A DNA stretch of 64,000 bases from Bacteriovoracia bacterium (GTDB lineage Bacteria; Bdellovibrionota; UBA1018; JBFWNL01), in contig JBFWNL010000005.1 of the NCBI GenBank assembly GCA_050251055.1, positions 160,001-224,000 on the forward strand, in the 5' to 3' direction. Shown here piece by piece: positions 5,749 through 49,231 of the stretch (its first letter is position 1; every line of letters starts with the position of its first letter). The translations under genes and the position numbers were made by a program. The notes under the pieces are model-generated. The model had not been told where the DNA came from and searched no databases. It was given only the letters and a program-made list of their open reading frames with translations.

Positions 5749-6120
5749 CTACTTGGAACGACGGCCCAGCAAGAACGCGCTGAGACCGACAAAAGCCGCC
5801 GTCGCCGAGATGAATGCCCAAGGGCGCTCATGCGCGGCGGTGTCGACTTTCTTCGCAGTTTCGACGGTAGTGTCGACGATTTTTTCCCTAGCCTGCTGCA
5901 CCGACTGCGTGGTGGCCGCGCTGATCTCGCGCAGGGCGCCTTTGACGGCCGGACGCATGCCCGTGAGCGTTTGCTTGAAGCGCTTGTAGTCGCGATTGAT
6001 CATGTCTCTAATTTCTTCCGAGCTGTCCTTCGCGGCGTCGTTCAGTAAGCTCAGCGCGTGCGAGATGGATTTTGCATCATGGTCGTGGCGATGGGAATTT
6101 ACGGCGTGCAGGTTTTTCAC
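5749..6120 (-). CDS. DUF883 (ElaB/YqjD) family protein
   Basis: C-terminal D.AAHERPW...A..GL.AFLLGRR; GTG start after AAGGAG. Confidence 0.85.
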   Translation of the reverse strand: MKNLHAVNSHRHDHDAKSISHALSLLNDAAKDSSEEIRDMINRDYKRFKQTLTGMRPAVKGALREISAATTQSVQQAREKIVDTTVETAKKVDTAAHERPWAFISATAAFVGLSAFLLGRRSK

Positions 6121-6174
6121 GAATAGCTCCTTCTTATTATTTGAGTGATAAATTGCGTTTCGGTGATCAAAAGG

Positions 6175-6190
6175 AGCAAGGCGCGTGCCA
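6175..6190 (-). promoter_or_regulatory. sigma54 promoter (DUF883 unit)
   Basis: TGGCACGCGCCTTGCT, full consensus. Confidence 0.8.
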
Positions 6191-6308
6191 TCCTCTACGT
6201 CGACTCGATTGGATTTGGGCGCGCTATCGCCCATGCGTTGAGAAAATATGGCATAGGTTCCTCCCAGCCTGTCCCGGTCATTGGTGAGAGACTTCTCGTT
6301 GCACGGGT

Positions 6309-33388: not shown

Positions 33389-33404
33389 TGGCACCGCAAT
33401 TGCT
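33389..33404 (+). promoter_or_regulatory. sigma54 promoter
   Basis: TGGCACCGCAATTGCT. Confidence 0.75.
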
Positions 33405-33448: not shown

Positions 33449-34057
33449 ATGAAATCGAAGAAGAAGAAAACAAGCGCGCGTCGTGGGCCCTCATCGCGCG
33501 GACAACGCCGCTCGACGTCGGCGCGTGCCGTTGGTCAGAGGCGCGAAGGTCGGAGTTGGGAGTATGAAGGAATTTCCGGCCGTCGTGACCTCAACGATCG
33601 GCATCAGGGGATGATGGATCGCGAGCCGGGATTTTCCTCCGAACGCCGCTATCTGGAGGATCGTGATGAGGCGTATGATCGTGGATATGGTGATAGGAAC
33701 CGGATGTCCAGGGAACGCCCCGAAGGCGACTATCCTCGGCGCGATTACTCCGGATACAACGATCGCGAACGCAGCTTCGGTGGGACCATGCGCGACAACC
33801 GAGACTACAACGATCGTGGTTACGGGATCGACGAACGGGAGTATCGCGATCTTGATCAGTGGGGCTCTAGCGGGCATGGCAGCGAAGGAGAGAGCTTTGG
33901 TCGGCGGAGTCGGCGCGACGAAGGTCCCCGACGAGGGTTGCGCGTGTACGCGGACGGCTTAAACGGATCGTCGCGCGGCGGCGGCTCGAATAACTCGCGT
34001 CGATCGGTCACCCGAGGTTCCCGCGGAACCGCGGGTTCACGCACCTATTCAGAATAG
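33449..34057 (+). CDS. Low-complexity R/D/G/Y-rich disordered protein
   Basis: AAGGAG RBS; RDY/DRGYG repeats. Confidence 0.7.
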   Translation: MKSKKKKTSARRGPSSRGQRRSTSARAVGQRREGRSWEYEGISGRRDLNDRHQGMMDREPGFSSERRYLEDRDEAYDRGYGDRNRMSRERPEGDYPRRDYSGYNDRERSFGGTMRDNRDYNDRGYGIDEREYRDLDQWGSSGHGSEGESFGRRSRRDEGPRRGLRVYADGLNGSSRGGGSNNSRRSVTRGSRGTAGSRTYSE

Positions 34058-39420: not shown

Positions 39421-40016
39421 TTTATTTTCCTTAGGGCGGATGGGGGTTGACGGTAACGCGCTTTGAACGCGTCGTTGAAACGGCGAATCGAGCGAAAGCC
39501 CGCCGCTAACGCGATTTCCGTGATCGGCTGTACCGTGGTGGTCACCAGGTGGTGGGCGTGCGCCAGTCGATGCGAGAAGGCCACCTGCTTTGGGGTTCGG
39601 CCCAATTCGGCGTTAAACAGCCGGCGCAAATGCCGCGCGCTCATACCGAAGCGGGCCGCGAATTGGTCCTCGTTCAGTTCCAACATTTCCAACGCCGCGT
39701 CGCCTTCCAGTAGCTTGAGCGCACGTTGAAGCACCGCCTTTGTGCCCACCCAAGCCGGTGAGTGCGGCCGGGTCTCCGGTCGGCACCGTCGGCAGGGTCG
39801 GTAGCCTGCCCGCTCGGCCGCGCGCCGCGTGAAAAAAAATTCGACATTCTCCCGCTTTGGGCGGGCAGGGCACACGGGGCGACAGTAGATTCCAGTCGTC
39901 TTCACGCCTACGAAAAACTTGCCGTCAAAGCGGACGTCCCGCGCGCGCATGGCGGCGTAGTAGCGGGCGTGAAGGGGGTCGCGGACGGAGCGAATGCTCG
40001 ACATACGGCGGACCAT
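39417..40016 (-). CDS. ada: Ada Zn-binding/AraC regulator (AdaA-like)
   Basis: RD..FDG.F; TTGIYCRP.C; GYRPC.RC.P; AraC HTH; ATGA overlap with ogt. Confidence 0.85.
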   Translation of the reverse strand: MVRRMSSIRSVRDPLHARYYAAMRARDVRFDGKFFVGVKTTGIYCRPVCPARPKRENVEFFFTRRAAERAGYRPCRRCRPETRPHSPAWVGTKAVLQRALKLLEGDAALEMLELNEDQFAARFGMSARHLRRLFNAELGRTPKQVAFSHRLAHAHHLVTTTVQPITEIALAAGFRSIRRFNDAFKARYRQPPSALRKIK

Positions 40017-40081
40017 ACGCCAAGCCCCCTGAAAAAAATAGCCATTTTCGGACAAGATCGTTTTGGGAACCGGGAAGGGCG

Positions 40082-40771
40082 CTACTCGTACACCTGGTTG
40101 CCGACGCGAACGTGCTTCACGTAGAGGATTTCGCAGGCACCGCCGCCTTGGTCGTCGCGCCGTAGGCTCGTGTTCCACTGGAATTCTTGGTGCCGCCGCG
40201 TGCCGGAAATGTTGACTAACCAGCCTTCGAGTTCGACGAGGTCGCCGACGGAAAGGCGTCGGATTGCTCGATCTATGTTTCGGTTGGCGGGAACAAGATG
40301 GTGATTGGAAGAAAGGAGGTAAACTTCCGAGCTGTTCAACGAGGCTCCCGGGTCGATGTAAAAGTGGTAAAACCGCTCGCCGTGATCGAACCGAAGGCCC
40401 GAGTCATGGGAGGGCGTCGCGAGTTTCCCCCAACCCAGGGCAACGTCGACGGGGCTGATGTGGCGTTGCCATTCCATGTAGTACGTACGGGTGGAAAGTA
40501 CGCGCGCGGCGACTCGATACGTGGCCACGGGTTGGGCTTGCAGATTTGCATCGGGAACGGAGAGGGGAATCGTTGTTTCGCCCGAAAGGGGAACTTGAGC
40601 GGGATCGGCCGATGCGTCTAGCGCACGGGTTTCGATGCGGGTGATCCGCGGGGTGCCCCGGGTCCAGGCACACCCGGACTGGTAGCACAGGTAGACGATA
40701 GTCCCGGCAAAGAGTCCGAGGAGAAGTTTGCCCATTTCCGGTATTGTAGAGCTGATCGTGATTGAATTCAA
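40082..40771 (-). CDS. Membrane-anchored hypothetical protein
   Basis: SPVD.ALGWG; N.HL.P; L.G.LV; W.TSL.R.D.G.GACE. Confidence 0.75.
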   Translation of the reverse strand: MNSITISSTIPEMGKLLLGLFAGTIVYLCYQSGCAWTRGTPRITRIETRALDASADPAQVPLSGETTIPLSVPDANLQAQPVATYRVAARVLSTRTYYMEWQRHISPVDVALGWGKLATPSHDSGLRFDHGERFYHFYIDPGASLNSSEVYLLSSNHHLVPANRNIDRAIRRLSVGDLVELEGWLVNISGTRRHQEFQWNTSLRRDDQGGGACEILYVKHVRVGNQVYE

Positions 40772-43700
40772 TCACGTGGGCCGACGACTCCGAACGCGAT
40801 GGGAACGAATCCCGCCTCTACGACCGCCGGAGCGTTCGCGGGGAGGATAAAGTTATTTTGTGCGGGCGCGACGAATCCTGGCTCGATGGCAAGTGAGTGG
40901 CCCGAGTCCATTTTCACGCGGATCTCATCGACATAGGTTTGCGAGGTCGGCAGGTCGAAGGAGAAGTAGGCGTTGAAATCGGCGTAGCCAATCAGAGAGT
41001 GATCGCTTTCAAAGTTCACGGGCCGACTTTCCTTGACCGATGAGTATACGATATTATGGGTAAACCAGTTGCCGGAAGGGATAAAGCCTAGGCCGGGTAT
41101 GATATTCGCGCTGGCATTCAGTCCGTACTGCCCGGATTCTGCGAAGATATTGTTCGTGATGCCGTTGCCGATACTTCGATGTAGGTTCATCGCCATGCGT
41201 CCGACGCCGTAAACGAGATTATCGCGCACGAGGAAGCCTTCGGAAGCTTCGTCTAAGTAGATGCCGGCTTGACCCTGGGCCGGAATCCAACAGGCGTAAA
41301 GGGCGGCGTCCAGATTGGCGGTTCCCCAAGCTTGCGCCGCTTGATATCCGTGAGGACATCCTTCCGTTTGGGTGATCGTGTTTACATAGACGCTTTGATG
41401 GCCGCGGCTGTACATTCCTCCGAACTGAAAATCGGCCACCTGGGTGGGCGTCGACGGGCGGTAACAGTAAAAAAGCGGCCAGTCGAGATTTTGGGTGCCG
41501 AGCGCTTGATGTGCGAGGTAACCCGTCGGACAACGATCTGTGCGGGTAATGGGGTTGGGGTGGATTACGACTTGCCCGTTGCTCCATCCGTAGCCGTACA
41601 TTCCGCCGAAGTCGTAGAGGGATGCGACCCCGGGCACGTGCGGACGCTGGCAGTAGTAGAGCGCGTGATCTTGGTTGTAAGTCCCTGCCGCCGCGGTTGC
41701 GGTATAGCCGCTTGGACAGCTGGCTTGCCCCGTGGCAGGATTCACGATCGGCGCGCCCCCGACGGTGTGCCCCCACATCCCCCCGAAATCGAGCCAATTG
41801 GCTTCAAGCTGCGGATCGAGCTTACGCACGTCGAATACGATGTTTTTTCGAATAATGCTCCCCGCCTGGGTACCCAAGGTGTAGATGCCGGCGCCATCCC
41901 GCAGTTCGCGCATCACGCGGAAAATACGGTTATTTTCGATGACCTGACTGCGCGCAGAAGTCACTTCGGGTCGCCAACGCCAGCCCACCGAGATGCCACT
42001 GTAAGGGCCATCGTGAATTTGGTTGTGGCTGATGGTCGCGTGATCGGTGATGAGAGCGGCGATGCCCACGCCTTCGCGGTACACGTGCCCGAAATGATGG
42101 ATACGATTGTCAGAGATTACATTGTCGATTGAAACGTCGTTGCTATTGCCACCTCCGATTTGGACGCCGCCGCCGGCGGCGTCGGTGATTTCATTGCGCT
42201 CGATCTTCAAGTCCCGACCGTACCCGTAGATCGCGTATCCACCTCCGACCCCACGAATCACGTTCCGACGAAATCCGATCTGGCGCGCGAAGCTGAAGGA
42301 AACGGGGCGCTCTTGTCCAGCGGCCGCCGCGGCTTGGCTTCCGGGGGCGCCCGTCGTGGGATTAAACCCCCAGTCGGAGTATTGAAAAGTCATATTCTCC
42401 CAGTTCAGATTGGAAACGAATTGGTAGGGAGGGTTGCCATTGCCTTGCATCAGGACGAATTCACGTAAAATGGGAACCAGTACTTGCATCGTCGTGGGAT
42501 CCTCGCCCGTGCGGGGCCAATACGAGAGCGTCCGGGAAGCAGGATCGAAATGCCATTCGCCAGGACTATCCAGGAAAGCTAGCGAGTTTTCGAGATAAAA
42601 ACGCGCGGGCCCGAACCAGTTAAAGGCGTTGTAGTTGAAGGCCGGCGAGGTTCCCGGATCGCCCATGACTTTGGCGAACGTGCCCGTGATTTGGGTGATG
42701 ACGTAGCGCGATTGCATCCATTCGTTGTTGGTGACGAGCTCGGTCTTTCCGGGGATCACATTCAATGCGGGCACGGCTCCTAGTCGGTACTTTAGTCCGC
42801 GAGCTTGGTTGGGCGCATCGAGCGGGCCGAGCGAGGGGAGCCAGCCCACGTTGGGAAAACGCGAGCGGATTGCCCGACGACCGTTGACGAAGAGGGAGCG
42901 GAAATCTTCGGGATAGACGCTCTCGGGTACGCGCACTTGGTAGATCGCGGGATTTGTCGGAGAGGGTTCAAAGCCACTAATGGATTTGGCGCCGGTCCAG
43001 CGCACCCATTCGCCGGGATAAGGTTGGTAAGTGATGGAATAGGAATCCGAGCCGGAGTCCAAGCTGGAAAGCGCGAAGACAGAAGTACGCAGGTAGTCTC
43101 CGCCCCGCACCACTACCTTAACGGGACGCGTGAGCGTGCCTTCGGCTTTGAGCGCGCGAATGGCGTCACGCGCGCGCTCAAGCGTCGCGAAGGGACCGTC
43201 GTTGACGGGATTACCTATCGGCGCAGGGTGTCTCCCGCTCCACGCGTCGTTCCCATTTTTCGCTACGAAGTACAAGGTATTGAGTTGGCTCACGGAGGCG
43301 GCAAGTGATCGCGAGCGTACGCAATATTTTAGCGAGTGATCCTTGCCTACGGTACCGAGCGTGGCCCACATGGAAAAGCCTATGGGGCAGCTGGGGGTAC
43401 CGATCGCCGGGTTAGGGTAGGCACCACCCTGCCGGTTTCCAAAGACTCCGCCGAAATCGTAACCCGAAAAGTCCAAAGACGCGGTCGCAGGGATATGGGG
43501 GCGATAACAATAGAACACTGGCCAGTCGAAGCCGCTGGTTCCGAGGATCTGTCGTTTCATGAACCCGTCCGGACACGATTCGCGGCCTGTGGCCGGGTTG
43601 GGATAGGCCCGACTTTCTCCGATCCAGTTTCCCCACGGAGTGTTGCCCGCGCCGTTTGCGTAGCCGAACATACCACCGAAGTCAAAGAACGGGGCCGCGC

Positions 43701-43917
43701 CCGCGGAACGTTGGCAAAGGTAAATCGCCCGATCAAGACCGGGAGTTCCAAATACCTGGGAAGGAGCATATCCGGCTGGACAGCTTTCCGCGTTTGTCGC
43801 GGGATTGGAATAGCCGGGTCCGTACATACCGCCGAAGTCCCAGTTCGCTTGCACGTTGTTCACAAAAACATACACAAAAATCTGCGCAAAGAGCGCACGT
43901 CTCAAGATTTTGCCCAT
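40768..43917 (-). CDS. Secreted right-handed beta-helix protein (GH141-like) with two 3x FGG-NP-CPxG modules
   Basis: Signal peptide; GPFATLERARDA, GEW.FD, DGAGIYTLG, GIYLDE; six Cys-containing repeats. Confidence 0.85.
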   Translation of the reverse strand: MGKILRRALFAQIFVYVFVNNVQANWDFGGMYGPGYSNPATNAESCPAGYAPSQVFGTPGLDRAIYLCQRSAGAAPFFDFGGMFGYANGAGNTPWGNWIGESRAYPNPATGRESCPDGFMKRQILGTSGFDWPVFYCYRPHIPATASLDFSGYDFGGVFGNRQGGAYPNPAIGTPSCPIGFSMWATLGTVGKDHSLKYCVRSRSLAASVSQLNTLYFVAKNGNDAWSGRHPAPIGNPVNDGPFATLERARDAIRALKAEGTLTRPVKVVVRGGDYLRTSVFALSSLDSGSDSYSITYQPYPGEWVRWTGAKSISGFEPSPTNPAIYQVRVPESVYPEDFRSLFVNGRRAIRSRFPNVGWLPSLGPLDAPNQARGLKYRLGAVPALNVIPGKTELVTNNEWMQSRYVITQITGTFAKVMGDPGTSPAFNYNAFNWFGPARFYLENSLAFLDSPGEWHFDPASRTLSYWPRTGEDPTTMQVLVPILREFVLMQGNGNPPYQFVSNLNWENMTFQYSDWGFNPTTGAPGSQAAAAAGQERPVSFSFARQIGFRRNVIRGVGGGYAIYGYGRDLKIERNEITDAAGGGVQIGGGNSNDVSIDNVISDNRIHHFGHVYREGVGIAALITDHATISHNQIHDGPYSGISVGWRWRPEVTSARSQVIENNRIFRVMRELRDGAGIYTLGTQAGSIIRKNIVFDVRKLDPQLEANWLDFGGMWGHTVGGAPIVNPATGQASCPSGYTATAAAGTYNQDHALYYCQRPHVPGVASLYDFGGMYGYGWSNGQVVIHPNPITRTDRCPTGYLAHQALGTQNLDWPLFYCYRPSTPTQVADFQFGGMYSRGHQSVYVNTITQTEGCPHGYQAAQAWGTANLDAALYACWIPAQGQAGIYLDEASEGFLVRDNLVYGVGRMAMNLHRSIGNGITNNIFAESGQYGLNASANIIPGLGFIPSGNWFTHNIVYSSVKESRPVNFESDHSLIGYADFNAYFSFDLPTSQTYVDEIRVKMDSGHSLAIEPGFVAPAQNNFILPANAPAVVEAGFVPIAFGVVGPRD
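41290..41796 (-). repeat. Internal protein repeat module 2 (3 units)
   Basis: DFGGMWG..NPATG..SCPSGY / DFGGMYG..NPIT..RCPTGY / QFGGMYS..NTIT..GCPHGY. Confidence 0.85.
43321..43842 (-). repeat. Internal protein repeat module 1 (3 units)
   Basis: DFGGMYG..NPATN..SCPAGY / DFGGMFG..NPATG..SCPDGF / DFGGVFG..NPAIG..SCPIGF. Confidence 0.85.
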
Positions 43918-43945
43918 CTTTGATCTCTCTCTTGAGCACGAAAGG

Positions 43946-43961
43946 AGCAAGGGGGGTGCCA
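43946..43961 (-). promoter_or_regulatory. sigma54 promoter (beta-helix gene)
   Basis: TGGCACCCCCCTTGCT, 29 nt upstream of ATG 43917. Confidence 0.78.
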
Positions 43962-44169
43962 GCTTGAACTGGCTTGTGCGAAGGCAGATGGAAGATCGTG
44001 GCTCACCGCTGCCTAAGGATCAAGCAGACGAACAGCTGACGCTACGTTCGTCGGGCGGGAGTGCCGTTTAAACGAATTGGCACGACCCAATCGACGACTC
44101 GCGATGAGGAAAGCTGGCTTCTGCTCAGAAAAAAATGTCCACACCTGTTCACGAGGGGATGGGAGGCGT

Positions 44170-45774
44170 CTAATCGCATTCGCGTAAATCGCTCGGGATC
44201 GTTTTCCGCCAGCTTCGGGAAGCACGGTATTTTCGATGGGAGGGTTCGCCGTCGGCGAAAAGCACGATCGTATACCCGTCGGCGGCCAAGCGAAAGCGAT
44301 CGCTTTGGGACATCTGGTAGCTTACGTCCACCCACGATTCATGGCCCGGCACTACGAGATCTGCGATTCGGTTCGGCTCCGTTGGCCAGCGTTCGGCGCT
44401 TTGTCCGCCGCGGAAATAGAACGTAGGGGAGAGAAGGTGCATTAAATCAGATTGGCGGGCTTCGGTGATGAAACGCGCTTCGGGGTATCGCGATCGCAGC
44501 ATTTCTAGCCAACGGAAGCAAGGCCAATCCACCCCGTTTGCGCCGGGAGGCTGGTAACAATAGGCGTCCAGTCCAATCTCACGGGCGCCAAGTTCATAGT
44601 ATGCGATGTCCATTTCCCGAAACGCTGCCGCCGTCGTAGATGGATCGGTCAGATTCAGGGGCGTGACTTCCGTGGGATTCCACGTGCGCATGATTTGAGT
44701 CGATCGTCCCCACCATAGCCCCAAAGAAACTTGCGTGGCTTCGCTCGCCGCTCGCAGAAGTGAGGCAGTCGCGTTCATGAGTGGAGTAAAGAACATTCCG
44801 GAGGCAAACTGAAACGGATAGTTGTAAGGCGATCGATCAAATAAACCAGAGGGAGCCCAAAGCATAGTCCGATGATAGCCGAGTGGCTCTTGCTCGCGCA
44901 GATGATTACTCCAGCCCAACCAACCTCTGCGGTCCGGACGCCGGGGGCCGTACGTGAATCCGCGGGGATTGTTTTGCACATCAATGTGGCCAGGTTCCGC
45001 GATCATGAACGGGAGCACGGGATCTCCGTCGCGTTCGTAGCGCACGGACCCGTATTTTTCACGAAAGTAGTCCCGGTAGGGGCGTAAGCCATGAATCCAT
45101 GGCTTGTTCACCGGGATTACACGAAGCGCGATTTCATAGTTTCGCGTTTCCCCCGGGGCGAGGTTTCCCTCGAGCACGTAGTCCATCACCCACTGCCGTC
45201 CATCTAGCCACCAGAGCAACACTGAAACGGGATGACGGTATTCCAAAAGCGGGTAGAGCAAGCTCGTAGCAAAGTGATAAGTGTCGCTCGAGATGACCTG
45301 GACCGGGCTGTAAGCATGATTGGGGTACTCCCATTCGGAGGCCAAGTAAAAAGGCTGGGTTGCGGAAGTCTGGGCCCGTTTCGGGCGCGCGTTCGCATAA
45401 CCCCCTACGTCCACGACCTTGATCTCACGCGGGAGTTGAATGCCGGAGATGCGGATGCTGCCGAGGGCGAGGGGCATTGATTCAGGATTCCGCAAGGTGA
45501 CTTCTGCGTTTACGCCATTCGGTACTTTACGGAAGCGGACATTCGCTTCGAGCTGTGTAATCGCGAGCGGATCCCGCGTCGAAACGATTGGGAGATTTCT
45601 TCGGCCCGTCGTATCGTGGAGAGAGAAGGTTTGGGGACCGTTGGAGTCGGTCTCAAGGCGTAGGGAGAGATAGGTTTGCGCCGGTTGACCGCAACCTACG
45701 GCGGCCTGGCTGACGGCGGGAAGCGCCCATCCTCCCCAGATCGCTATTAGTGTAAACCAAAGCACGCTCGGCAT
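44170..45774 (-). CDS. Secreted hypothetical protein, possibly glycoside-hydrolase-like
   Basis: Signal peptide; aromatic-rich; LGLWWG, IGLDAY, FITE motifs. Confidence 0.65.
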   Translation of the reverse strand: MPSVLWFTLIAIWGGWALPAVSQAAVGCGQPAQTYLSLRLETDSNGPQTFSLHDTTGRRNLPIVSTRDPLAITQLEANVRFRKVPNGVNAEVTLRNPESMPLALGSIRISGIQLPREIKVVDVGGYANARPKRAQTSATQPFYLASEWEYPNHAYSPVQVISSDTYHFATSLLYPLLEYRHPVSVLLWWLDGRQWVMDYVLEGNLAPGETRNYEIALRVIPVNKPWIHGLRPYRDYFREKYGSVRYERDGDPVLPFMIAEPGHIDVQNNPRGFTYGPRRPDRRGWLGWSNHLREQEPLGYHRTMLWAPSGLFDRSPYNYPFQFASGMFFTPLMNATASLLRAASEATQVSLGLWWGRSTQIMRTWNPTEVTPLNLTDPSTTAAAFREMDIAYYELGAREIGLDAYCYQPPGANGVDWPCFRWLEMLRSRYPEARFITEARQSDLMHLLSPTFYFRGGQSAERWPTEPNRIADLVVPGHESWVDVSYQMSQSDRFRLAADGYTIVLFADGEPSHRKYRASRSWRKTIPSDLRECD

Positions 45775-45866
45775 GGGCCCTCGGTGATAAAACCCCAGCC
45801 TAGGTCCCCACTGACGCGGCGATTTTTCATGGACAAATTTTAGCGGTCGGCGCATTCAGAGAGTCG

Positions 45867-46160
45867 ATGAATTCACGTGTGAATTGGCCTTCTTCTTTCC
45901 TCTGGATCGGGCGCATGGAGGGGATTTCACTCCTGCTTTTATTCTTTTTGGCCATGCCGCTGAAGTATCTGGCGGGCGAGCCCGCCGCGGTACGATGGGT
46001 GGGAGCCATTCACGGCGTGCTCTTTCTTGCTTATGTCTTCGCAGCCTTCAATCTCTCGGGGGCGCGGAGTTGGCCGGGGAGACTTCTGCTGATCTGCATG
46101 GTGCTTTCCTCGGTTCCCTTCGGTACTTTTTATTTTGAGCGAAAATACGGAAATCATTAG
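45867..46160 (+). CDS. DUF3817 membrane protein
   Basis: EG.S.L.L...AMPLKY; G..HG.LF..Y; PFG. Confidence 0.88.
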   Translation: MNSRVNWPSSFLWIGRMEGISLLLLFFLAMPLKYLAGEPAAVRWVGAIHGVLFLAYVFAAFNLSGARSWPGRLLLICMVLSSVPFGTFYFERKYGNH

Positions 46161-46237
46161 TTTTTCTAGCATTAAGAAATCAACACATCGCTTCCATTCT
46201 CTCCAAAGAAGCAGGGCTTAATCTGGTCTCAGAGGAA

Positions 46238-46534
46238 ATGGTCGATGAATCACTCAATTACGTCTACTCTGAAGCCCCCGATAGCTTTCACTCGTTTACC
46301 CGGGTGGACCACTCGCCTAGGGTTGTTTGCTTTGATGTTTGGGTGCCTATTTCTCCAGGACATGGGACCTCGGGAGGCAAGGTGGCTGTCCGGTCGGCCG
46401 TCAAGCATTTGGCGCAAGTGAGTGCGCCAAACGAGGCCCCAGCGCTCCAGGGGGTGTTCTCGCCGAAGTTGGTGGCTCGGCTACGTGAACTGGCGGCTGA
46501 CCGTCGAATTTTCGTCGCCGTTGGATCTAGATAA
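46238..46534 (+). CDS. Hypothetical protein
   Basis: AGAGG RBS; fills the gap; no recognisable motif. Confidence 0.35.
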   Translation: MVDESLNYVYSEAPDSFHSFTRVDHSPRVVCFDVWVPISPGHGTSGGKVAVRSAVKHLAQVSAPNEAPALQGVFSPKLVARLRELAADRRIFVAVGSR

Positions 46535-46579
46535 GTCCGCGTTCTCTGGTTTCGTTGTAATTCCGCCGATAAGCAGCTG

Positions 46580-49231
46580 ATGGCGCTCGAGGCTCAATCA
46601 GGAAAGTATATCCGCTGGGCGGTTGCGATGACTGTGGTTTTGCTCACGGTGCCGGTCTTAGCGGGCTGGAATTCCGTCGACGCTGGATATCCATTCGCGC
46701 TTTGGTCCCGCATGCAGTTTAACACCGCTTTGGGATTGTTGTTTTCAGCGGGGTTTGTCGGTTGGACCGGACGGTTCCGGCACCGCGTGGTAGCGAGCTT
46801 CTCGATCGTGGTAGGTGCCTTAGGTGGACTTACGCTCATTGAATATGTGTTCGGAGTGAATTTTGGTATCGACGAACTTTTCCGTCGGGCCATCTCGTCC
46901 ACGGTGGATGGCCACCCAGGTCGCATGGCGCCGAACTCAGCCGGTGCATTTTGTTTGCTGGGATTGGCGGGTTATTTCGTCAGCCGGGAGATACGCGCGA
47001 CGAATCGGCCGGTGTCGTGGCGATCGGTACTCGCCGCGCTCGCCGCGTCCGCGGTCGCGGCAATCGGGCTCGTGACCTTGCTGGCTTTTGGTTTTCGTTT
47101 TGCAGATGGCGCGGATATCGCGTCCTACGCGCGGATGTCCGCACCGACGGCGTTGGGCTTTGCCCTGCTAGGCGTATGGCTGGCCTTAGATATTTTTACA
47201 CGATTACGGCGATCGGTTTCTTCTACCGAGCACTTCCTTCCGGCCGTGGTGGCTTCCTCGATGCTTTTCCTCTCGGTCCTGGTCTGGCAGCATTTATTGG
47301 CTCAGGAAGCGCGAATGATACGTACTGCCGTGGAGAACGCGAACAATAAGCATAAGGAAGAGATCCTCGAGTATTTGAAGCAAATCACCTATGCAATGCA
47401 GCGATACGCCGATCGAGTTGAGTTTCTAGGCACGAAAAATCAGCGCTACTTAGAGCTGGACAGTAAGAACTACTTGGCGGGCCTGCCGGTGTTAAAGCGG
47501 ATCGGCATCACCGATTCTCACTTTAAGGTGATCTGGTCCTATCCGCCGGAGCTGCGACATCAAGTAAGCGGTTTTGACCAATCGGGTGAGGACGTGCGGC
47601 GCGACGCTTTTATGGCGGCGCGGGAAAATCGGATCCCGACCCTGAGCCGAACGGTCGAGCTTCGTTCAGGGGGATTTGGACACCTTCTGCCAGTTGCTTT
47701 GTTCCCCGGGGGAGAATTCGCGGGAGCGGCTTATGCTACCCTACAAACAGATAATATTTTCGCCCAACGTCCGATCTCCCAAGACTTCCATTTACAGGTA
47801 CAAGAAGGTGGCCGCCGGGTTTTCAGCGAGGACGGTCGCACGCCGGCGGTGGTCGGTTTCGCCGATCGACTGGAGATTGCTTGGGGGCTGGCGCGGTGGG
47901 AGGTGGTGGCTATCCCGACGACCGCGTTTGTCGATAGCCGGAGTTCCGCGGCCCCGCATACTATTTTCGCGCTCAGTTTGTTTTTTTCCGCGCTATGCGG
48001 GTTCCTGTTGCGATCGGCCGCGAGGCTTCAGGTCGATCGGTTGAAGTCGATGGACCAGTTAGAACGTGCTTTGTATGACGCGAAGGCCGCCACCCGGGCA
48101 AAGTCAGATTTTTTGGCGACGATGAGCCACGAGATTCGAACCCCACTGAATGGAGTGATCGGCATGAGCAGCTTGCTGATGGAGACAAAGCTCAGTCAAG
48201 AGCAACAAGAGCTTGTGCATACGGTTTCTAACTCGGGTAAGACGCTGCTCAGCCTGATCAACGATATTTTGGATTTTTCCAAAATCGAATCTGGACGAAT
48301 GCAGCTCGAGGAAGTCGAGTTCGATGTCGCCGAAACGCTTCGGGAAATACTGAAACCGTTTGAACTCGCGGCGAAAGGTAAAAACATCTATTTTCGATTC
48401 GACGCCGATACCTACGGCCACCGTGTGATCGGCGACAGCGGGCGGCTGGGCCAAGTGGTCTCGAATCTGGTGTCCAACGCGCTGAAATTCACACCCCAAG
48501 GCAGCGTGCTGATCCGCTTGAATTTACGGGCGCTGGGGGACCGCACGATCATGCGCCTCGAGGTGACGGACACCGGAATTGGGATTCCGGACCAAGCTAA
48601 GAGCCGCATGTTTGAAGCGTTTTCCCAGGCGGAGCAATCCACCAGCCGGAAGTTCGGCGGTACCGGTCTTGGGCTTTCGATTTCAAAGCGTATCGTTCAG
48701 CTGATGGGCGGCACGATCGGCTTCCAAAGCATGCTCGGGGTGGGCACCACCTTCCGGGTGGAGTTTGCCTTCCGTACGGGGCAGGCCATCGCGCATTCTC
48801 CTTCCGGGGAGCCGTCGACGGTAGCGAGCTCCACGAAGCCGCTCGAGGGACGGGTGCTTGTAGCTGAGGACAATCCTACCAATCAGCTGGTGATTGCCCG
48901 CATGCTCGAAAAGTTGGGCTGCAAATATCACCTGGTGGCCAACGGTAACGAAGTGCTCGACGCGCTTCGCGAAGCTCCGTTCGACCTCATCCTGATGGAC
49001 TGTCAGATGCCCGACATGGACGGCTACGAGGCTACCCGGCTCATCCGCCAATCCTCGACGCTCAATCGCGCGATTCCGATCGTTGCCCTCACCGCAAACG
49101 CGGGCGTGGAGGACCGAGAGAAGTGCAACACCGTGGGGATGAACGATTTTCTAACGAAGCCCGTGGATCGGAAGGCGCTGGAGGCCGCGCTCCGACGTTA
49201 TCTCGCCGCCTCCGATCCGAAAGCCGCCTAG
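46580..49231 (+). CDS. Hybrid sensor histidine kinase/response regulator with CHASE-like domain
   Basis: Multi-TM; MSHEIRTPLNG; NA.KFT; GGTGLGL; receiver LMDCQMP...KP. Confidence 0.93.
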   Translation: MALEAQSGKYIRWAVAMTVVLLTVPVLAGWNSVDAGYPFALWSRMQFNTALGLLFSAGFVGWTGRFRHRVVASFSIVVGALGGLTLIEYVFGVNFGIDELFRRAISSTVDGHPGRMAPNSAGAFCLLGLAGYFVSREIRATNRPVSWRSVLAALAASAVAAIGLVTLLAFGFRFADGADIASYARMSAPTALGFALLGVWLALDIFTRLRRSVSSTEHFLPAVVASSMLFLSVLVWQHLLAQEARMIRTAVENANNKHKEEILEYLKQITYAMQRYADRVEFLGTKNQRYLELDSKNYLAGLPVLKRIGITDSHFKVIWSYPPELRHQVSGFDQSGEDVRRDAFMAARENRIPTLSRTVELRSGGFGHLLPVALFPGGEFAGAAYATLQTDNIFAQRPISQDFHLQVQEGGRRVFSEDGRTPAVVGFADRLEIAWGLARWEVVAIPTTAFVDSRSSAAPHTIFALSLFFSALCGFLLRSAARLQVDRLKSMDQLERALYDAKAATRAKSDFLATMSHEIRTPLNGVIGMSSLLMETKLSQEQQELVHTVSNSGKTLLSLINDILDFSKIESGRMQLEEVEFDVAETLREILKPFELAAKGKNIYFRFDADTYGHRVIGDSGRLGQVVSNLVSNALKFTPQGSVLIRLNLRALGDRTIMRLEVTDTGIGIPDQAKSRMFEAFSQAEQSTSRKFGGTGLGLSISKRIVQLMGGTIGFQSMLGVGTTFRVEFAFRTGQAIAHSPSGEPSTVASSTKPLEGRVLVAEDNPTNQLVIARMLEKLGCKYHLVANGNEVLDALREAPFDLILMDCQMPDMDGYEATRLIRQSSTLNRAIPIVALTANAGVEDREKCNTVGMNDFLTKPVDRKALEAALRRYLAASDPKAA

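Follow-up and report, generated by a model that had tools for sequence, protein, structure and literature searches.

The closest described relative of the protein modules reported here is the P2 domain of perforin-2 (MPEG1), a membrane-anchored pore-former of animal immunity with a transmembrane tail, in which P2 follows the MACPF domain. In the published reports, P2 is described as having pseudo-threefold symmetry with one conserved disulfide per repeat, and the module arrangement of perforin-2 as one not seen before (PMC6989145). P2 has been joined to the MABP fold by structure only (PMC6753088, PMC7593815), its sequence being <5% similar to those of other MABP domains (PMC6753088). Isolated P2 binds to acidic lipids, to E. 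coli lipids and to lipopolysaccharide (LPS), and deletion of its basic hairpin abolished lipid binding (PMC6989145, PMC6753088). For classical MABP domains, a 2010 report described bacterial members that occur solo, fused to MACPF or fused to beta-helix repeat proteins (PMC2881412). The enzymes closest to the protein studied here are those of glycoside hydrolase family 141 (GH141), which include the alpha-L-fucosidase BT_1002 (5MQP), whose D523 and D564 are reported as essential (PMC12786026), Xyn141E and the Wf141 endo-fucanases; the unpublished beta-helix structure 9RX2 is similarly close. We analysed a 64,000-nucleotide stretch of a Bacteriovoracia bacterium genome (contig JBFWNL010000005.1, positions 160,001 to 224,000), called the window below, and a minus-strand gene within it that joins these two systems. 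What is new here is a GH141-like enzyme with P2-type prisms of a bacterial branch that had not been described.

The longest open reading frame (ORF) of the gene, P0001, runs from 43950 to 40768 and has 1060 codons. Residue numbers refer to P0001 throughout, and those of the 1049-aa database protein, P0004, are lower by 11. A regular expression for the full repeat (FGG..NP.T..CP.G[YF]..G..D..C) gave six matches across all six frames of the window, all in one minus-strand frame and in one gene. The repeats fall into two groups of three, one N-terminal (43714-43836, 43507-43680 and 43321-43470) and one inserted further along the protein (41650-41787, 41464-41610 and 41290-41424), the same two blocks that an initial annotation of the window, made from the sequence alone, had picked out. 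The core motif CPxG[YF] occurs six times in the protein, while even a single copy was found in just 27 of 2000 protein shuffles, and each of the six repeats has two cysteines. A profile built from bacterial modules matched residues 37-212 (E 1e-65) and 720-889 (E 1e-70). The repeats and this profile, together with the predicted fold, delimit an N-terminal P2-type beta-prism module at 43312..43845 (residues 36-213); the second module, at 41275..41799 (residues 718-892), is delimited by its repeats, the profile, alignments and the full-length model. The two modules are ~50% identical, 170-178 residues long and near-neutral (pI 6.9 and 6.1, respectively), with ~15% aromatic residues. The module was not found in any other gene of the same genome (3.77 Mb, 93.5% complete). 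Repeat 2 of the N-terminal module has a Trp/Gly/Asn-rich loop of ~15 residues, GYANGAGNTPWGNWIGESRAY (residues 97-118, window ~43597-43662), which was modelled by AlphaFold2 with low confidence; a similar loop stands at the same place in P0094 and P0100, which are of a Lysobacter/Burkholderia fusion type.

Sequence searches of the PDB support homology of the modules to P2. The whole protein matched MPEG1 with phmmer at E 3e-5, and the N-terminal module alone did so at E 4.6e-7, with the next match at 0.69. The match of the inserted module alone was weaker (E 1.5e-3). A profile of 11 bacterial modules (A1) reached MPEG1 at E 3e-11, covering all three P2 repeats, and MPEG1 was the sole family below E 1.9. 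Against 5.8 billion proteins, the same profile matched peccary MPEG1 at E 7e-7. AlphaFold2 modelled the N-terminal module with a predicted local distance difference test score (pLDDT) of 85 and a predicted template modelling score of 0.82, as an all-beta structure with three equivalent strand sets. When this model was compared with known structures using Foldseek, perforin-2/MPEG1 chains filled ranks 1-17; 13 of these chains had E <=0.001, and the best had 2.9e-7. VIA-align, an aligner independent of Foldseek, superposed the model on the P2 crystal structure (6sb1_A) with Z 17.7 and a root-mean-square deviation of 2.9 A over 145 residues at 29% identity. The next unrelated entries were far below, namely Mp2Ba1 (Z 5.5), the MABP domain of MVB12B (Z 5.0) and Plu-MACPF (Z 4.7). 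The full-length model also matched P2 chains with Foldseek (E 2e-4), a match that probably stems from the inserted module, given how badly the N-terminal one is folded there. Both cysteines of each repeat recur in 88-100% of 217 modules, which fits the one disulfide per repeat of P2, and the modules are predicted to be disulfide-stapled three-fold beta-prisms. The kinship with P2 and the prism fold that the initial annotation had proposed are both supported, P2 being the best PDB match by sequence profile and by fold, and the Pfam and NCBIfam scans matched the modules to no characterised carbohydrate-binding module (CBM). Kinship with jacalin-type lectins, considered for the GG and G-x4-D motifs, was not supported, the only match having a VIA-align Z of 2.2.

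The classical MABP domains of MVB12B (3TOW), plu1415 (2QP2) and Mp2Ba1 (8B6V) belong to the same general beta-prism class, but are only 5-18% identical to the module at the low Z scores given above. They gave no sequence match in PDB searches with either module or with the A1 profile. This weak similarity is consistent with a shared superfold, as has been published for P2 itself. With P2 (6SB1, 6SB4, 6U23), the bacterial modules share three three-stranded repeats, the FGG, NP.T and CP.G[YF] motifs and one Cys pair per repeat. P2 differs in having a long basic hairpin after repeat 1, where the bacterial modules have no insertion, and the bacterial modules are not basic overall. In the alignments, ~35 residues of MPEG1 are left unaligned between the first two profile matches, and the 145 aligned module residues are spread across a 202-residue span of P2. 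Among 217 near-complete modules from 168 proteins, FGG, NP.T, CP.G[YF], the G-x4-D turn and the closing Cys were each conserved at 83-100% per repeat. The G-x4-D turn is invariant in each bacterial repeat, but the profile alignment shows a substitution or a gap in its place in MPEG1 repeats 1 and 2. The setting differs as well. Here the prism stands on a predicted glycoside hydrolase in a protein without MACPF and, unlike P2, is present twice, once inside another domain.

The carrier is a GH141-like right-handed beta-helix, as had been proposed for it at the outset. Pfam models matched the protein as Beta_helix (53 bits), GH141_M (33.2 bits against a cut-off of 27) and NosD; no Pfam model matched the modules and no NCBIfam model any part of the protein. 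The best PDB sequence matches were to the beta-helix protein 9rx2 (E 6.6e-38), of which we found no published mention in open-licence PMC papers and bioRxiv, and to BT_1002 (5mqp, E 3.5e-27). In the full-length AlphaFold2 model (mean pLDDT 69) the helix and the inserted module are confident, and Foldseek aligned this model to 5mqp at E 5e-27 with a template modelling (TM) score of 0.68 by target and ~22% identity. The first part of the helix, which includes the GH141_M insertion domain, lies at 41800..43302 (residues 217-717) according to Pfam, the PDB matches and the model, and the second part with the C-terminal region lies at 40771..41274 (residues 893-1060) according to the PDB match and alignments. 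By alignment, both GH141 catalytic aspartates are kept: D685 in RDGAGIYTLG (codon 41896-41898) aligns with D523 of BT_1002, and D900 in GIYLDE (codon 41251-41253) with D564. These residues were matched through the module-free homologue P0009, whose alignment to 5mqp puts the two aspartates at a distance of 41 residues, one in D-x-A-G-V-Y-T-L-G and the other in Y-T-D-E; from this 41-residue spacing, the PDB chain index was taken to be the published number plus 5.

Alignment with module-free homologues placed the second module where they have a short loop, between ...RDGAGIYTLG...FDVRKLD and GIYLDEASEG, in agreement with the insertion site first reported. Since D685 and D900 match D523 and D564 of BT_1002, the second module therefore replaces a loop just before the second catalytic aspartate. 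The GH141 enzymes named at the start share the beta-helix, GH141_M and both aspartates with this protein, but lack its 175-residue insert between the aspartates and its other, N-terminal copy of the module. Among the proteins compared, the insertion was common only to P0232 (865 aa), a distant relative, which has a module at the same place without an N-terminal one and is 35% identical over 891 columns. Other relatives carry the module C-terminal to the helix, e.g. P0148, P0166, P0170, P0223, P0237 and P0255, the last of which is named from a Bdellovibrionia metagenome-assembled genome (MAG).

A phmmer search of 1.84 billion representative proteins found 250 with the module at E <=0.001, 182 of them at E <=1e-10. 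The bacterial P2-type module family is thus rare, and in the same phylum the module was present in 5 of 300 other sampled genomes. Named carriers were Myxococcus, Pyxidicoccus, Minicystis, Lysobacter, Burkholderia gladioli, Pseudomonas, Chitinimonas, Andreprevotia, an Acidobacteria MAG and the Bdellovibrionia MAG. A Pfam family was found in 25 of the 60 carriers scanned and in 13 of 39 in a second scan, and the GH141-like beta-helix was the partner in five of each. Further partners included peptidases (trypsin with PPC, M10, M11, M12B and S8), GH99, malectin, F5/8C, PA14, PG_binding_1, Vps62-like domains and collagen stalks. MACPF was found in only three of the 111 longer carriers: mammalian MPEG1, in which it is the sole Pfam family, the MPEG1-like protein P0341, and P0330. 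No Pfam or NCBIfam model covered the module itself. The module was C-terminal in 77 of 168 proteins, five short proteins (139-240 aa) consisted of little beyond one module, and some Myxococcus-type proteins had six or seven. The module occurs as a mobile accessory domain of secreted hydrolases. It resembles CBMs in being small, all-beta and repeated, and in that it may stand at one or the other terminus, form tandem arrays or make up a protein by itself, although no Pfam CBM model matched the modules in scans that covered Pfam and NCBIfam, with the CAZy CBM list and dbCAN left out. We found no published bacterial sequence relative of P2 in open-licence PMC papers and bioRxiv, a scope that leaves out most subscription journals. 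In several Myxococcus-type proteins (P0005, P0121, P0265, P0038 and P0273), a Vps62-like C-terminal domain, with a PF06101 match that is weak in some, comes after two to seven modules. P0250 and P0251 begin with collagen triple-helix repeats followed by one P2-type module, an order that recalls collectin and C1q heads. The catalytic-domain segment of P0094 had no match in a PDB search.

We consider, with moderate confidence, that the gene encodes a secreted GH141-like glycoside hydrolase whose two P2-homologous prisms act as ligand-binding, most likely glycan-binding, modules. The modules are read as ligand binders because they lack the membrane-binding hairpin and are not basic. A glycan is favoured as the ligand because many of the fusion partners are glycanases or lectin-like domains, because the modules are neutral and rich in aromatic residues, because the P2 hairpin is missing and because one copy adjoins the catalytic residues. 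Each repeat may hold one putative site around the invariant G-x4-D turn and nearby aromatics. Through the N-terminal module the enzyme would stay attached to a polymeric substrate, and the inserted module would extend the substrate-binding face beside the active site. The likeliest class of substrate is an extracellular or cell-surface polysaccharide. Several points weigh against this assignment. The idea of three lectin-like sites per module comes from conservation, and the jacalin-type lectins reached no more than the Z score given above. The full-length model has low confidence for the N-terminal module and for residues 883-1049, and for this reason does not reveal where the modules lie with respect to the active site. 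P2, the only characterised relative, is reported to bind acidic lipids and LPS, not free glycans (PMC6989145, PMC6753088), and classical MABP domains are likewise taken to bind membranes (PMC2881412). Proteases are frequent among the partners, and what they would gain from a glycan-binding module is harder to see; the MACPF, Vps62-like and PG_binding_1 partners would suit an attack on cells.

A different proposal, which we regard as less likely but as a serious alternative, is that the modules bind cell envelopes as P2 does, through acidic lipids, LPS or another membrane component, and bring the glycanase to the prey or competitor cells that it would act on. The initial annotation had favoured such targeting. 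The modules are homologous to a domain that binds acidic lipids, E. coli lipids and LPS in isolation (PMC6989145), the link of classical MABP domains to membranes (PMC2881412) points the same way, and the partners include MACPF, PG_binding_1 and many secreted proteases. However, lipid binding by P2 was lost on deletion of its basic hairpin (PMC6989145), which is absent in the bacterial modules, and the modules are near-neutral. The membrane targeting reported for P2 is for these reasons not transferable to them. The case for a prey or competitor surface as the destination has as its only basis the host lineage, Oligoflexia/Bdellovibrionota by cluster names, and the fusion partners, and the claim is not supported in that form. 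The adenosylhomocysteinase encoded in the window falls into one 90% cluster with proteins named from Oligoflexia and Bdellovibrionota MAGs. Predatory or lytic bacteria predominate among the named carriers (Myxococcus, Pyxidicoccus, Minicystis, Lysobacter and the Bdellovibrionia MAG), but the module, with its 5 occurrences among 300 sampled genomes of the phylum, is not a general feature of the lineage. Parallel beta-helices are known for many activities and the full model weakly matches phage tailspikes and capsule lyases, so that the helix could also be a lyase, an epimerase or a non-catalytic adhesin, with the prisms as structural or oligomerisation units; the modules on collagen triple-helix stalks in some relatives could point to trimer heads. 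We think this improbable, since GH141 structures lead the matches by a wide margin and both GH141 catalytic aspartates are retained, and the conservation of surface-loop motifs across 217 modules is stronger than a spacer would need. Of the picture first drawn from the sequence, the observations thus stand apart from one detail of the gene junction described below, and the interpretation stands for P2 homology and fold, but not for membrane and prey targeting.

The suggestion of the initial annotation that the modules may bear on where P2 came from is a reasonable one. The bacterial family, clearly similar to P2 in sequence and in fold, supplies the first relatives of a domain that had been regarded as having none at the sequence level. 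The origin of P2 is now open to phylogeny, and the conserved prism body becomes a candidate for function besides the hairpin. Small, soluble, secreted bacterial domains are now to hand for studies of binding and structure. In the field of carbohydrate enzymes, the module is a candidate for a new CBM-like accessory family, one copy being lodged here between the catalytic aspartates of a GH141-like protein. We tentatively propose, as a possibility that we hold to be short of probable, that P2 is not an animal invention but derives from a bacterial family of disulfide-stapled prisms that serve as targeting modules of secreted lytic enzymes in predatory and soil bacteria, that the combination of MACPF with P2 exists outside animals, and that animals inherited or acquired the module and added the basic hairpin. 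If this is true, the prism body of P2 would have a conserved ligand-binding role of its own, which is testable via the bacterial modules. P0330 (772 aa, metagenomic) has MACPF followed by six P2-type repeats, i.e. two modules, and is collinear with MPEG1 through the first repeat. The bacterial module profile matched it at E 2.5e-28, compared to 7e-7 for mammalian MPEG1, and a search of metagenome contigs with P0330 found three distant MACPF relatives. In P0341 (723 aa), MACPF is followed by a P2 domain with a hairpin-like insert, and the protein ends with a transmembrane segment and a short tail. Being rich in Asn, Lys and Ile, it may come from an AT-rich eukaryote outside vertebrates.

The coding sequence of the database protein spans 40768..43917, stop codon included, with its start at the ATG at 43917. 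The TTG at 43950 with which the longest ORF opens is part of the -12 element (TTGC) of a sigma54-type promoter site. This site, TGGCAC-N5-TTGC at 43947..43961, is an exact consensus with both the -24 GG and the -12 GC elements, as originally noted, and ends 29 bases 5' of the ATG. The exact motif occurs three times in the window compared to 0.19 expected from shuffles, and rpoN (sigma54) is encoded in the same genome. The glycanase gene is probably transcribed from this promoter, to judge by the consensus match; against this, none of the 18 neighbouring proteins scanned was a sigma54 activator. A scan of 39900-46600 for terminators and sigma70 promoters revealed nothing beyond chance. The first residues of the protein, MGKILRRALFAQIFVYVFVNNVQA (43846..43917, residues 12-35), were read by eye as a probable Sec signal peptide, with a basic n-region, a hydrophobic core and VQA before N. 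A second copy of the sigma54 motif lies at 33389-33403 on the plus strand and ends 45 bases before the ATG of a 202-aa ORF (33449-34057) with no Pfam family. The third, at 6176-6190 on the minus strand, is within the longest form of the ORF at 5749-6234.

The downstream gene (40082..40735) encodes 217 aa from its database start, the ATG at 40735, and has an N-terminal hydrophobic segment according to sequence scans. It is adjacent to the glycanase gene on one strand, with its ATG 32 bases past the glycanase stop. The two genes had been described as ATGA-coupled, but this coupling is not present, because the junction reads GATTGAATTC, a TTG/TGA overlap and not ATGA. The downstream protein belongs to no known family in Pfam or NCBIfam, and an Atlas look-up returned unnamed clusters only. 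Upstream, on the same strand, lies a gene for a secreted protein at 44170..45774, with a 561-aa form at 44170-45855, recognised from a sequence scan and an Atlas model. The 561-aa form has no Pfam family. The Atlas model resembles alpha-galactosidase/GH36, GH31 and DUF6259 glycosidase folds with TM scores of 0.63-0.71, which we take as leads only. The upstream protein may thus be of an uncharacterised glycosidase family beside the beta-helix gene, and as such we count it as a lead in favour of a glycanase at this locus. The wider surroundings consist of unrelated housekeeping genes, namely ada, ogt, ahcY, a hybrid histidine kinase and a MATE pump.

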